From an uncultured virus (IMG/VR IMGVR_UViG_3300025543_000015) (lineage: Duplodnaviria > Heunggongvirae > Uroviricota > Caudoviricetes > Crassvirales), in IMG/VR virus record IMGVR_UViG_3300025543_000015: a stretch of DNA of 20,000 nucleotides. One strand, written 5' to 3'. The position numbers and the translations under genes are program-made. The notes under the pieces are model-generated. The model was not told the origin of the DNA, ran no database searches, and saw only the letters and a program-made list of their open reading frames with translations. Below, piece by piece: positions 8,129 through 15,183 of this stretch (position 1 is its first letter; every line of letters starts with the position of its first letter).

Positions 8129-8428
8129 TTAGTTTAAAATTAATACTTCGTCTTCACTCAACCCTCTCTCTATTTGGTAGTAGTACGATTGTAGTGTGTC
8201 AATTAGGTATCTACCTTGAGCAGTATGAAAACCATATGAATGTGTATATGCACCTGCAATTGGCTCATTCTCAATTAGTAGATGAAATAGGTCTGTAGGT
8301 GTTATACCTCTCTGCTCCTTAGCTAGTCTTCTGCATGCTAGTACTAGTGACTTAACATTGTGTCTTGGTTGACCATAGTTCGATGTGATGTACTTCTTTG
8401 CTCCTGCAATTGTTAAATTTGTGCTCAT
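8129..8428 (-). CDS. Hypothetical protein
   Basis: 99 aa, TAATG-coupled. Confidence 0.7.
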   Translation of the reverse strand: MSTNLTIAGAKKYITSNYGQPRHNVKSLVLACRRLAKEQRGITPTDLFHLLIENEPIAGAYTHSYGFHTAQGRYLIDTLQSYYYQIERGLSEDEVLILN

Positions 8429-12576: not shown

Positions 12577-12819
12577 ATGATGACAAGAACAATAAAATTT
12601 AATATAAAACATTTCATAGAAGAGTACATCTATAGCATAGAGTCTAAAGACGACGATGCTGAGGTAGAGCTACTAGAGAAGTTTAATCGGGTGTTCTACA
12701 ATAGTCCACCACAAGTTAAAAAAGGTATACAAGCATTTCTGTTCAATAATAGTAATGCGAAGGAATACAAAAAGATACAAGATTTAGCCACAAGATGCGC
12801 CTGTTTTTTAATAAGTTAA
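12577..12819 (+). CDS. Hypothetical protein
   Basis: 80 aa, preceded by a promoter box. Confidence 0.7.
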   Translation: MMTRTIKFNIKHFIEEYIYSIESKDDDAEVELLEKFNRVFYNSPPQVKKGIQAFLFNNSNAKEYKKIQDLATRCACFLIS

Positions 12820-12829
12820 ATATTTTTTG

Positions 12830-12837
12830 TATATTTG
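12830..12837 (+). promoter_or_regulatory. -7 box (TATATTTG)
   Basis: TAnnTTTG upstream of ATG 12879. Confidence 0.7.
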
Positions 12838-12878
12838 CACTTATAATTAGTGATACATAACTCAAAAAACTAAAACAC

Positions 12879-13208
12879 ATGGCAATTAAAGGAAACGCAT
12901 TTAGCGAGTACAGAGATGTAATCGTTCAATTTAACCTCTCAGAAGGGTTAGACATCGTTGGGCAAACTGCTCAAGAAGCGATGAGTATTGATGCTTATAA
13001 AGCAGCATTAAACAAAGTAGCTGACATTGAAGCTAAGTATGCAGCAGACTCTACATCAGTAGTAGATTTAGCAGCAGTTAACGTTGTAATGACAGGAACA
13101 AGTCGTTACAAGCTTTACAGCTTTAACTTAACACTAGACATTTCAGCAGGTCTTTACAGATTCGTTTGGATTGAAACAGTACCTAACGCAGCAGGATTAA
13201 CTCCGTAA
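12879..13208 (+). CDS. Hypothetical protein
   Basis: 109 aa, with its own promoter box and a downstream terminator. Confidence 0.75.
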   Translation: MAIKGNAFSEYRDVIVQFNLSEGLDIVGQTAQEAMSIDAYKAALNKVADIEAKYAADSTSVVDLAAVNVVMTGTSRYKLYSFNLTLDISAGLYRFVWIETVPNAAGLTP

Positions 13209-13229
13209 GCAGTTAAGTAACAACTAATG

Positions 13230-13265
13230 ACATCTCGTCGCTTAATAGTGGGCGAGGTGTTTTTT
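13230..13265 (+). terminator. Intrinsic terminator
   Basis: ACATCTCGTC...GGCGAGGTGT followed by a T-run. Confidence 0.75.
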
Positions 13266-13281
13266 AAACAACAATAAAAAG

Positions 13282-13371
13282 ATGAAAAATTTTAACATAT
13301 ATTATAATTGCTTTAGTTGGTCGAATAACCAACAGGGTGAGTTATGTGTTAAAGTGAAGATAAGTATTTAG
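13282..13371 (+). CDS. Putative leader peptide of the tRNA cluster (29 aa)
   Basis: MKNFNIYYNCFSWSNNQQGELCVKVKISI; A-rich upstream region; followed by a terminator, then tRNAs for Y, S, S, N, W, F, C. Confidence 0.7.
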   Translation: MKNFNIYYNCFSWSNNQQGELCVKVKISI

Positions 13372-13398
13372 ATACTATTCCTTTCTTTATTACAGTAC

Positions 13399-13431
13399 AA
13401 GCCCTTAGCATTTATGTTAGGGGCTTTTTTT
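13399..13431 (+). terminator. Intrinsic terminator / attenuator immediately before the first tRNA
   Basis: AAGCCCTTAGCA-TTTA-TGTTAGGGGCTT-TTTTT. Confidence 0.85.
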
Positions 13432-13436
13432 ATTGG

Positions 13437-13502
13437 GGTGCTTTTTAGCTGAGGTAGGGTCTGTAAAACCCTAACCGAGTGGTGCAAATCCACTATACAC
13501 CA
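13437..13502 (+). tRNA. tRNA-Tyr(GTA), atypical/degenerate
   Basis: Anticodon arm AGGGT-CTGTAAA-ACCCT, T-arm AGTGG-TGCAAAT-CCACT; mismatched acceptor, reduced D-arm, no long variable arm. Confidence 0.6.
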
Positions 13503-13507
13503 CAAAT

Positions 13508-13595
13508 AGAAGGAGTCCGGTTGGACGAGGGGCTAGTCTTGAAAACTAGTAGGTCGTGGAGACATGGCTTGGGGGTTCGAATCCCTTTCCTTCTA
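13508..13595 (+). tRNA. tRNA-Ser(TGA)
   Basis: Acceptor AGAAGGA/TCCTTCT, CTAGT-CTTGAAA-ACTAG, long variable arm, GGGGG-TTCGAAT-CCCTT. Confidence 0.9.
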
Positions 13596-13601
13596 CTATA
13601 T

Positions 13602-13685
13602 AGAAAGTGAACTCACTAGGGTGGGCTTTCCCTGCTAAGGGAATGGGTCGAGAAATTGGCTGTGGGTCATGACCACCTCTTTCTG
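13602..13685 (+). tRNA. tRNA-Ser(GCT), non-canonical T-loop
   Basis: Acceptor AGAAAG/CTTTCT, TTTCC-CTGCTAA-GGGAA, long variable arm, GTGG-GTCATGA-CCAC. Confidence 0.75.
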
Positions 13686-13734
13686 CAACGTATCATATCG
13701 TATATCGCAAATCGCAAATCGCAATATGGAATAT

Positions 13735-13806
13735 TCCTCAGTAGCTCAGTGGTAGAGCAAGGTGCTGTTAACACCGAGGTCGCAGGTTCAAATCCTGCTT
13801 GGGGAA
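13735..13806 (+). tRNA. tRNA-Asn(GTT)
   Basis: Canonical cloverleaf: TCCTCAG/TTGGGGA, GCTC-AGTGGTA-GAGC, GGTG-CTGTTAA-CACC, GCAGG-TTCAAAT-CCTGC. Confidence 0.95.
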
Positions 13807-13811
13807 CAAAT

Positions 13812-13879
13812 ACATCTAGACTTGGCAGCAGCAGTGGTCTCCAAAACCATAGCGTAGGGTTCGATTCCTTGTGGGTGTG
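13812..13879 (+). tRNA. tRNA-Trp(CCA), reduced D-arm
   Basis: ACATCTA/TGGGTGT, GTGGT-CTCCAAA-ACCAT, TAGGG-TTCGATT-CCTTG. Confidence 0.8.
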
Positions 13880-14190
13880 CTAAATGTGCCTTATAATGCA
13901 CAAAATGGGTGTTTTTGTATATAATAAGCAACATATAGATACTAATAGTGTGTTAAATAGCACTTTATTAAACTGTGGTGGTCTAATCTTAGTAATAATT
14001 CGAGTAAGTTAGCAATAATTGGTATGTTTCTCGAAATTTTACTAAAGCAGGTGGTCTAATAGGTGGTGTAATGTCAAGTTTTCACTGTCATTTACTTGAC
14101 ACATCAATATATGTAAAAGCGTATAATATGGCACTTTTGATTGGTATTATATGCAAAAGGATATAATATGATTGAAGTAACAATCAAATT

Positions 14191-14262
14191 GGGGAGAAGC
14201 TAACTTAGTAGAAGCAGTGGTTTGAAACGCCACAGGAACAGGAGCATAACCTGTCTGCCCCA
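14191..14262 (+). tRNA. tRNA-Phe(GAA), non-canonical T-loop
   Basis: GGGGAG/CTGCCCC (one bulge), GCT...AGC D-stem, GTGGT-TTGAAAC-GCCAC, ACAGG-AGCATAA-CCTGT. Confidence 0.7.
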
Positions 14263-14267
14263 CAAAT

Positions 14268-14339
14268 GACTCTGTGACCGAATTGGCTAGGTGGTTGGCT
14301 GCAACCCTTCACATGTGGGTTCGAGCCCCACCGGAGTTT
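14268..14339 (+). tRNA. tRNA-Cys(GCA)
   Basis: GACTCTG/CGGAGTT, U73 discriminator, loop CTGCAAC (stem with two T-T mismatches), GTGGG-TTCGAGC-CCCAC. Confidence 0.85.
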
Positions 14340-14467
14340 CTAATGCATGGAAAACCCAACATTAAGTGCTAAATTGACCCTTAATGCATGAGAAACCCCA
14401 CACTAGTGGAAAAATTCTATGTATATGTCTATATAATGGAAAAAAGTATACATATACATATATTTGC

Positions 14468-14475
14468 TATCTTTG
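14468..14475 (+). promoter_or_regulatory. -7 box (TATCTTTG)
   Basis: TAnnTTTG, 18 nt upstream of ATG 14494. Confidence 0.7.
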
Positions 14476-14493
14476 TGACAAATTAAATTTAAT

Positions 14494-15183
14494 ATGAAAC
14501 AAGGAACAGACAGATTTGTCCCTATAGAAAAGGATGTCAAAGATTTGATATTGATGTATAGAGTAGACCACGGTCTATCCTATAGAGAGATTGAAAGAAG
14601 ATTAGGCGTATCTAGAGAGACAGCGAGGCTCCACTGCTTAGAGAACTTAACAGAGGAGAAGCGTAAATCATTAAAGAAAAAGAAAAAACTTAACTCTAGA
14701 AAGGTTAAGAACAGAAGTGTTACAAAAAAGACACCTCTACCACAGTATAACTCAGTTAGGAACTATGACTTCCTACAATACATACGAATAGTGTTCAGAT
14801 GGGCGTTAAAGACCCACAGAGACCTCAACAGGGGTACTCTAGAAACATTACTCTTCCTTTACCCTAAAGGTGCTTTTACATACACCGAGTTCCATATATA
14901 CTACAAAACTATAGGGATGTATCAAAGCCATGTGCTAGCTGAGTTTATTGAAAATGGTTGGGTTAAGGTTTGGAAGAAGCGAACAGGTAGAAGTCCTAAG
15001 CTATACGCATTAACTGATAAATCCAAAAGGTTGTGTGATGATATACACAAATACTGTGTAGGTGATAAGAAGATGTCTGAGGAGTCTGATAATCCAATAG
15101 TCTCTGACAAGGATGTTAGAATAAATACCTACTACGTGGATATGATTAAAAAGATGAACAAAAGGAAAGCCCCTACTAAGTAA
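14494..15183 (+). CDS. DNA-binding protein: N-terminal HTH plus C-terminal winged-helix-like domain
   Basis: GLSYREIERRLGVSRETAR HTH, a Lys-rich linker, then GWVKVWKKRTGRSPKLYALT wing-like motif. Confidence 0.7.
   Translation: MKQGTDRFVPIEKDVKDLILMYRVDHGLSYREIERRLGVSRETARLHCLENLTEEKRKSLKKKKKLNSRKVKNRSVTKKTPLPQYNSVRNYDFLQYIRIVFRWALKTHRDLNRGTLETLLFLYPKGAFTYTEFHIYYKTIGMYQSHVLAEFIENGWVKVWKKRTGRSPKLYALTDKSKRLCDDIHKYCVGDKKMSEESDNPIVSDKDVRINTYYVDMIKKMNKRKAPTK

Follow-up and report, generated by a model that had tools for sequence, protein, structure and literature searches.

What decides when a phage transcribes its transfer RNA (tRNA) genes? The regulation and the purpose of such genes are open questions, and the current explanations, codon-usage compensation and replacement of degraded or cleaved host tRNAs, treat them as simply expressed. 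We address the question at a locus within a 20,000-nucleotide (nt) stretch of DNA from an uncultured virus of the Crassvirales (IMG/VR record IMGVR_UViG_3300025543_000015); this whole stretch is referred to as the window. Here, a 109-codon gene ending at position 13208 is followed by a hairpin, a 29-codon open reading frame (ORF) and a terminator, behind which tRNA-like genes stand in a row (Table 1). A first-pass annotation of the window had proposed that the ORF is the leader peptide of an attenuator sensing the depletion of the tRNAs encoded behind it. The comparative evidence, namely a conserved module and codon runs that track the tRNA blocks, supports this interpretation. We consider it likely that the seven tRNA genes are gated by a ribosome-mediated (leader-peptide) transcription attenuator, composed of the ORF, a leader hairpin, an antiterminator strand and the terminator.

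Leader codons and the downstream tRNA genes

The ORF to which the first-pass annotation drew attention is present in the ORF list. Its central feature was also reproduced, as 13 of the 14 codons 3–16 belong to the set Asn, Phe, Tyr, Cys, Ser and Trp (N/F/Y/C/S/W). Codons 7–16 (13300–13329) form an unbroken run of ten codons cognate to the downstream tRNAs, codons 3–5 are also cognate, and all seven tRNAs have at least one cognate codon in the ORF. The AGT and TCG codons match the two Ser isoacceptors, as had been claimed.

The first-pass annotation had asked how probable such a match would be by chance. With the codon usage of 15 ORFs of the window, the chance of a match is 0.236 per codon, and that of a run of at least ten in a frame of this length is about 5e-6 to 1e-5. 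When all six frames of the 20 kb were scanned for the same amino-acid set (17,006 stop-free segments of 14 codons), 12 or more of 14 codons were reached only at the leader ORF, if a tandem repeat is excepted. That repeat (~1742–1820), which encodes Ser/Tyr repeats in two frames, was the sole other scorer. The match is therefore beyond chance, at the unique non-repeat site of its kind. Moreover, frames +1 and +2 of the leader DNA contain 4/27 and 4/27 cognate codons, so AT-richness alone is not the explanation.

A family of leaders preceding phage tRNA blocks

The entry to the family was a weak blastn match of the window tRNA-Asn to Cellulophaga phage phi17:2. The match extended past the tRNA gene because the spacer in front of it (13690–13731) is conserved; this spacer contains short ATCGCA-type repeats and is kept in phi17:2 (L006 2500–2530), and one related contig lacks it (‘skips 42’). 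At the end of the large array of phi17:2 stand tRNAs for Tyr, Ser, Ser, Asn, Trp and Phe, followed by a ‘pseudo’ tRNA whose anticodon is that of Cys; this is the order found in the window. The block is preceded by an unannotated ORF (MKTNYCTYNNSNWSFSYDTGSVCTLGSDGLIG) and a terminator abutting tRNA-Tyr. A DNA pattern made from the bases common to the window and phi17:2 leaders (ATGAAAA...TTGGTCG...TATGT) returned 56 loci, three of which hold the leader (the twin of the window, phi4:1 and L052), the other 53 being unrelated genes. L052 thereby supplied a third leader, located before the same seven tRNAs. A search with the alignment of the three peptides returned nothing beyond the window’s own twin. 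Two more phages were reached by blastn with the phi17:2 leader: Cellulophaga phage phi10:1 and Tenacibaculum phage Gundel_1, the latter carrying two leaders. The route via the flanking proteins (229 and 109 amino acids) was uninformative, giving the identical contig L003 and the distant L004 and L005, both without tRNAs.

The module of ORF, terminator and tRNA genes was found in phi17:2/phi4:1, phi10:1, Gundel_1, L052, L073, L112 and L132; homologous short ORFs with terminators stand ahead of tRNA blocks in four lineages of isolate phages and in several uncultured contigs. The window leader starts with MKN, the relatives with MKT. A profile of the seven other leaders of its class, class A (phi17:2, L052, L073, L112, L132, Gundel_1 and phi10:1), had its top window match at 13288–13433, with E 0.0077. 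On synteny, peptide similarity and this modest profile match, the window leader is assigned to the family. The second profile match (8219–8253, E 0.33) has no promoter box, a four-codon frame and no terminator, and was taken as chance.

We also scanned viral and metagenome collections with a 17-letter string composed of the promoter box, four bases and ATG AAA ACA A, which is independent of the codon run and of the tRNAs. Among 188 matches, 17 combined an ORF of at most 45 codons with a tRNA call on the + strand no more than 260 nt away, and these represent 13 distinct peptides. The remaining 171 were ordinary genes or frames without an adjacent tRNA. A perfect cognate run of 5–15 codons, scored on uncurated ARAGORN tRNA sets, was present in nine of the 13 peptides. 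L149 has 7 of 18 codons cognate with a run of three, and three peptides fitted poorly (L222, a truncated locus, L084 and L087). Bacterial genomes contain at least 120 promoter-plus-start matches, and none of those listed had a + strand tRNA call within 400 nt, although hosts may still have leaders. Related contigs from four DNA runs gave, in the parts they cover, no leader-ORF substitutions readable for selection. A look-up of RNA datasets listed none containing the stretch.

Co-variation of leader codons with tRNA content

For the comparison, leaders from the string scan were combined with those found by other routes into 17 leader/array pairs in eight classes (Table 2). Every leader (17/17) has a contiguous run of 3–15 codons cognate to its own array, and the run reaches at least ten codons in nine of them. 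For instance, MKIQRLHLQELEQPIISGGTGV precedes the block Pro, Glu, Gln, His, Leu, Leu, Arg. In an exact permutation of the eight class representatives, only the true pairing (1 in 40,320) reaches the observed sum, whether run lengths or total matches are counted, and the outcome is the same with curated and with ARAGORN-only tRNA sets. Conservation of the ORF and its co-variation with tRNA content in relatives had been named beforehand as a potentially refuting check, and the result favours the attenuator.

Table 2. Classes of leader/array pairs, by the tRNA block that follows the leader
tRNA block	Leaders
Tyr/Ser/Ser/Asn/Trp/Phe/Cys	window, phi17:2, L052, L073, L112, L132
Tyr/Ser/Ser/Trp/Phe/Cys (no Asn)	Gundel_1 leader 1, phi10:1
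Pro/Glu/Gln/His/Leu/Leu/Arg	phi17:2 first leader, L077, L195
Pro/Gln/His/Leu/Arg	L104
Tyr/Leu/Ser/Ser/Leu	L083
Pro/Ile/Cys	L149
Pro/Gln/Met/Asn/Leu	Gundel_1 leader 2
Ala/Lys/Ile/Gly/Met/Asp/Thr/Val/Arg	phi17:2 second leader, L077 second leader

The correspondence extends to single tRNAs. The three leaders of phi17:2 have runs of 10, 11 and 11 codons on their own blocks, versus 1–5 on the other two. Asn codons do not occur in the run before the two arrays without tRNA-Asn (Gundel_1 leader 1 and phi10:1), and there are 3–6 of them before arrays with it. Isoacceptors are also distinguished: Leu TTA and CTN codons go with Leu-taa and Leu-tag, Ser TCN and AGY with Ser-tga and Ser-gct, Arg CGC with Arg-acg and AGA with Arg-tct, and three of four Ile codons are ATA where the block has Ile-tat. 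In total, the leaders contain one or more cognate codons for 103 of the 107 tRNA genes behind them, and frames +1 and +2 of the leaders contain no runs longer than four.

Several further observations concern the arrays of the isolate phages. The three blocks of phi17:2 (L252 and L006; KT962247 ~87,500–91,100) roughly sort the tRNAs by the first codon letter, into C-starting codons plus Glu and Leu-UUR, A-/G-starting codons, and U-starting codons plus Asn and Ser-AGY. Two ‘hypothetical proteins’ annotated there look mis-called. Phi17218_077 (L252 2143–2262) is the leader of the Ala/Lys/Ile block called from an upstream TTG start; its frame has no ATG, and we took the GTG at L252:2179 as the start. 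Phi17218_078 (L006 2247–2348) overlies a Ser-tga tRNA, detected at relaxed threshold. In Gundel_1 (L064 1713–2219), an HNH endonuclease gene lies between the terminator of the second leader and the Pro/Gln/Met/Asn/Leu block, which is why this leader is ~600 nt away from its matching tRNAs.

Terminator, leader hairpin and antiterminator

The strong intrinsic terminator described in the first-pass annotation was confirmed by a terminator scan and by folding, with −16.2 kcal/mol when folded alone (Table 1). It was said to end 5 nt before the first tRNA; we measured a gap of 3 nt after the T run. The gap is too short to hold a promoter, no TAnnTTTG box occurs in 13266–14458, and this placement leaves the tRNAs no alternative route past the terminator. 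The proposed pairing of segments 1 and 2 is also part of the minimum free energy (MFE) structure of 13266–13436 (z = −5.3), in which 13289–13301 pairs with 13343–13355 and encloses 13316–13321/13328–13333.

The pairing of segments 2 and 3 had to be revised. The helix GTGTTAA/TTAGCAT (13346–13352/13405–13411) named in the first-pass annotation could form, but it would cross the conserved pairing, and the relatives have no equivalent. The conserved interaction is instead that of the G-rich strand 13334–13342 with 13397–13405, and it can be extended to 13334–13354 with 13386–13405. In the full-length MFE structure of the window leader, five of seven antiterminator nucleotides are paired to the codon-run region.

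The same elements recur throughout the family. All 17 leaders have an intrinsic terminator of −10 to −19 kcal/mol with a T run, touching the first tRNA. In all 17, the strand that pairs best with the 5′ arm of the terminator lies 50–68 nt after the ATG, just behind the codon run. This antiterminator strand and its own terminator arm co-vary, with a mean of −10.8 kcal/mol for own pairings versus −7.1 kcal/mol for cross pairings, and 0 of 100,000 random pairings of the 17 leaders were as good. The match is perfect over 11 base pairs (bp) in L052 and in Gundel_1 leader 2. These alignment-free duplex energies were used because class A could not be aligned closely enough to assess the antiterminator; from seven class-A leaders aligned with MAFFT, RNAalifold recovered only the terminator (10 pairs, three with compensatory changes). 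In 14 of the 17 leaders, the full-length MFE structure has the antiterminator strand bound to the codon-run region. When a stalled ribosome was modelled, by masked equilibrium folds and by transcripts cut before the 3′ arm of the terminator, the antiterminator remained possible in 17/17. The anatomy of the module, its conservation, and the co-variation of codons with tRNAs and of antiterminators with terminators are thus shown computationally for the family.

The window’s terminator sequence (13396–13433) recurs in contigs of three runs with other flanks and an apparent gene start after it. This hairpin is thus common to related phages and not unique to the tRNA leader.

Proposed mechanism

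A transcript entering from upstream would be translated through codons that are read by exactly the tRNA species encoded downstream. As long as no ribosome occupied the codon run, the leader hairpin (1:2) would hide the antiterminator strand. With fast decoding, the ribosome would cover or pass the antiterminator strand, or the leader hairpin would re-form; the terminator would then fold and transcription would stop before the tRNAs. If any of these aminoacyl-tRNAs were scarce, the ribosome would stall on the run and cover segment 1. The freed G-rich strand (13334–13354) would pair with the base of the 5′ arm of the terminator (13386–13405), and the polymerase would read into the array. The new tRNAs would relieve the stall, and the element would thereby control decoding capacity by negative feedback. 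That the ORF is translated, that ribosomes stall on it and that the polymerase reads through are steps that we infer from sequence comparison. Anticodon-nuclease defence, named in the first-pass annotation, would be one candidate trigger; the anatomy itself supports the sensing of decoding speed at these codons, whatever lowers that speed.

Transcript source

The source of the transcript deserves separate consideration. TAnnTTTG is the Bacteroidota-type −7 promoter motif. It is enriched in the window (41 found versus 24.7 expected) and stands before most genes. In a motif scan of the window, no + strand TAnnTTTG was found between 12837 and 14459, in agreement with the claim that the motif is missing between the upstream hairpin and the ATG. 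The nearest upstream box, the one in front of the 109-codon gene, is the likely source of the transcript reaching the leader. The window leader would consequently have to be transcribed from the upstream gene, through a hairpin that is weaker than the leader terminator. Matches to sigma-70-type promoters inside the array (e.g. 13897–13925) were dismissed because they were as frequent in shuffled sequences (10 versus 10.3) and because the phage shows Bacteroidota-type boxes. In the relatives (including L064, L073, L077 and L083), 4 nt separate the end of the TAnnTTTG box from the leader ATG. Judging from this spacing, transcription may begin at the AUG or immediately beside it, and the leaders may be translated as leaderless mRNAs.

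Evidence weighed against the proposed attenuator and alternative explanations

We must also note the observations that speak against an attenuator at this locus. The window copy lacks the TAnnTTTG box that most relatives have 4 nt before the ATG, and it begins 16 nt after the terminator-like hairpin 13238–13265. Its antiterminator core is among the weaker ones (−8.4 kcal/mol versus −16.2 kcal/mol for the terminator), and its own arm ranks 4th of 17. Four of the seven window tRNAs are below default detection thresholds and could be impaired. At the nucleotide level, the window leader shows modest homology to the others, as the profile E value indicates, and its close copies offer no variation to read, as both (G001 and contig L003) are 100% identical to the window. 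Within the family, the codon match is also imperfect in places. The leader of L084 keeps Ser and Cys codons without matching tRNAs (its array is Tyr, Asp, Phe, Leu), the phi10:1 leader has an AGT codon without Ser-gct, the L104 leader has no Arg codon despite Arg-acg in the array, and L087 retains a class-A leader before a decayed array. Moreover, the 17 leaders share descent, with the same promoter and the same MK(T) start, and are not fully independent samples.

In the folds, the terminator was retained in the full-length MFE structure of 16 of the 17 leaders, and without a ribosome the antiterminator formed in 15 of the 17 transcripts cut before the 3′ arm. A ribosome placed on the stop codon abolished the antiterminator in only seven of 17 leaders, the window not among them; there, 11 of 16 arm nucleotides were still paired. 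Modelled equilibrium folding by itself is no proof of a switch. A ribosome-dependent switch would nevertheless be kinetically plausible, by analogy with classical attenuators.

Several of these points would favour another explanation, in which the family is a real attenuator and the window copy a non-regulating remnant, acquired without its promoter, with tRNAs either silent behind two terminators or transcribed by unregulated read-through. The missing box, the hairpin upstream of the ATG, the weak antiterminator and the four sub-threshold tRNAs all fit such a remnant. So does the split of the array by a 310-nt stretch (13881–14190) that is missing from related contigs, and L087 provides a precedent for a leader persisting before a decayed array. 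On the other hand, the ORF is intact, its run of ten cognate codons is unbroken, all seven tRNAs are represented, and the leader hairpin, the position of the antiterminator and the terminator have all been retained. In addition, the ATG is preceded by an A-rich and apparently unstructured stretch, which would favour translation of the ORF as a downstream cistron. Hence, we regard a remnant as unlikely, while taking it seriously.

Another possibility is that the leader is translated and senses codons, with an output other than intrinsic termination, namely Rho access, RNase processing or transcript stability. The equilibrium folds without a clean ribosome-dependent switch would be compatible with such an output, as would the stop codon of class A, which lies 8–12 codons beyond the antiterminator. 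However, in 17 of 17 leaders the first tRNA is immediately preceded by a canonical intrinsic terminator and its T run, and each leader carries the strand that co-varies with the terminator 5′ arm. Such a strand is needed by a termination/antitermination switch and not by the other outputs, which makes them improbable.

It seems very improbable that the ORF encodes a functional small peptide, such as a Cys/Trp-containing effector, whose position before the tRNAs is incidental. M1, K2, Y8, W13, S14, G19 and C22 are invariant among three class-A peptides, as could be expected of a conserved product. Nevertheless, it is composition that is kept and not sequence, and leaders before other blocks have entirely different residues that track their tRNAs. 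The invariant TGG TCG and TATGT sit in RNA helices and may be kept for pairing. Furthermore, the same start and architecture occur with different codon runs within one genome, in two leaders or, in phi17:2, in three. Finally, a chance frame in the AT-rich, structured spacer that ends the upstream operon is hardly credible: AT-rich DNA does favour Asn, Phe and Tyr codons, and rare coincidences are expected somewhere when very many windows are scanned, but the leader is the sole such non-repeat site in six frames of 20 kb, a run of at least ten has a probability of ~1e-5 with no enrichment in the other frames, and ORFs with the same codon logic are found in independent phages, their codons differing according to the tRNA set.

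The tRNA genes and the layout of the locus

ARAGORN at default settings called three of the seven tRNAs (Ser-tga, Asn and Cys), and with relaxed thresholds exactly seven, abutting one another in the order Tyr, Ser-tga, Ser-gct, Asn, Trp, Phe, Cys. The seven-tRNA content given in the first-pass annotation is thus borne out, though four members are unusual.

Table 1. Coordinates of the features at the proposed attenuator locus of the window
Feature	Position	Strand	Description
Nearest upstream TAnnTTTG box	12830–12837	+	in front of gene 12879–13208
Upstream gene	12879–13208	+	109 codons
Terminator-like hairpin	13238–13265	+	7-bp stem plus T run, 16 nt before leader ATG
Leader ORF	13282–13371	+	29 codons plus stop, MKNFNIYYNCFSWSNNQQGELCVKVKISI, from ORF list
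Regulatory codon stretch, codons 3–16	13288–13329	+	13/14 cognate to downstream tRNAs
Leader hairpin, segments 1:2	13289–13355	+	MFE fold
Antiterminator strand	13334–13354	+	core 13334–13342 pairs 13397–13405, −8.4 kcal/mol
Intrinsic terminator	13399–13434	+	12-bp stem 13399–13426, 4-nt loop, T run from 13425
tRNA-Tyr (GTA)	13435–13503	+	ARAGORN relaxed only; no call at ARAGORN default or in Rfam
tRNA-Ser (TGA)	13504–13596	+	ARAGORN default (13505–13596); Rfam 45.6 bits with the Sec model
tRNA-Ser (GCT)	13602–13686	+	ARAGORN relaxed; sub-threshold at default
tRNA-Asn (GTT)	13735–13807	+	ARAGORN default; Rfam 64 bits
tRNA-Trp (CCA)	13806–13880	+	ARAGORN most relaxed threshold only; Rfam 21 bits, far below the gathering score
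tRNA-Phe (GAA)	14190–14263	+	Rfam 30.2 bits (gathering score 29); ARAGORN relaxed
tRNA-Cys (GCA)	14268–14340	+	ARAGORN default; Rfam 41.5 bits; two mismatched anticodon-stem pairs

The window tRNA-Tyr is a 69-nt form without the long variable arm that is normal for bacterial tRNA-Tyr. Short tRNAs with a Tyr anticodon also follow the terminators in L084 and Gundel_1 (L064), and the long form is present in phi17:2, L052 and phi10:1. The tRNA with the Cys anticodon is odd in every phage (window 14268–14340, L006 2907–2981, L064 1303–1377). GenBank labels it ‘tRNA-Pseudo’ in phi17:2 and ‘Undet’ in Gundel_1, and ARAGORN reports odd loop sizes. This conserved oddity suggests a non-standard but maintained tRNA.

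The 310-nt stretch 13881–14190, which splits the array between tRNA-Trp and tRNA-Phe, looks like an insertion. Related contigs of two runs show a joint there (‘skips 310’ or ‘skips 313’), and the stretch contains a 23-nt direct repeat (14108–14130 and 14148–14170) and inverted repeats reaching into its edges. Directly after the last tRNA, a 35-nt direct repeat is present twice (14341–14416), the copies being 41 nt apart and 74% alike.

Relation to known regulatory systems

Leader-peptide attenuators are known from amino-acid operons, e.g. trpL, hisL, leuL and pheL, and the multivalent thrL and ilvL. As in trpL/hisL-type attenuators, the element described here combines a short ORF, presumably translated, with a regulatory codon run, alternative 1:2/2:3/3:4 helices, and an intrinsic terminator before the regulated genes, and the signal would be the speed of the ribosome at codons that depend on particular aminoacyl-tRNAs. 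Sensing several amino acids at once is also not new, since the mixed-codon thr and ilv leaders already do so. Unlike in those systems, the targets here are tRNA genes and not enzymes, and the element is carried by phages. One leader samples up to 8–10 tRNA species, to the level of isoacceptors, and several leaders partition one array into what would be separately gated blocks.

A closer parallel in terms of the target is the pheST attenuator of E. coli (pheM leader), where phenylalanyl-tRNA synthetase is controlled by Phe codons. It shares with our element a leader peptide and a target in the translation apparatus that is matched to the sensed codon. In contrast to that chromosomal system for one amino acid, the product here is not a synthetase but the tRNA itself, and the feedback would act on tRNA supply, not on charging. 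T-box riboswitches (Rfam RF00230) likewise attenuate transcription in response to a specific tRNA through terminator/antiterminator alternatives. T-boxes, however, bind uncharged tRNA directly via a specifier codon and the T-box sequence, with no translation, whereas the window element would need the ORF.

Within 12800–14800, no T-box covariance-model match was obtained at E up to 1, and no Rfam His, Leu, Thr or Trp leader family matched the region. The Rfam matches over the leader were far below their gathering scores (PyrR 27.9 versus 54, VrrA 24.1 versus 50, Spot_42 22.6 versus 80). The mechanism would be of a known kind, ribosome-mediated attenuation, on a new target, phage tRNA genes, with codons matched to multiple tRNAs.

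A full-text literature search, which covered sources other than subscription journals and supplements, returned no description of leader-peptide control of tRNA genes. In Cellulophaga phages, tRNA clusters were reported to share a conserved central isotype block, flanked on both sides by exclusive ones (PMC6409571), a pattern that fits the block structure seen here. In the main text of that paper, the words ‘leader’, ‘attenuat’, ‘terminator’ and ‘promoter’ are absent, and control elements between the blocks are not described. Similarly, a survey of premature terminators (PMC2965389) contains none of the terms ‘tRNA gene’, ‘tRNA operon’, ‘Bacteroid’ and ‘phage’.

Implications for phage biology

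On balance, we favour a broader view of Flavobacteriia phages, in which their tRNA arrays would be split into blocks, each behind a codon-matched leader and a switchable terminator. Such phages would measure decoding per codon class, transcribe a block only when its class is slow, and shut it off again as the tRNAs accumulate. If this is true, a feedback controller would act on the tRNA genes themselves, and it would answer host tRNA loss from any cause, be it host shut-off, codon-usage mismatch or a tRNA-cleaving defence. It would also account for the unannotated or mis-annotated spacers and ‘hypothetical proteins’ within phage tRNA clusters. Leader-peptide attenuation would be extended from amino-acid supply to tRNA supply, and the element would constitute a natural, compact, multi-codon sensor of translation speed. 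The phages would, in that case, monitor decoding directly and dose their tRNAs by feedback.

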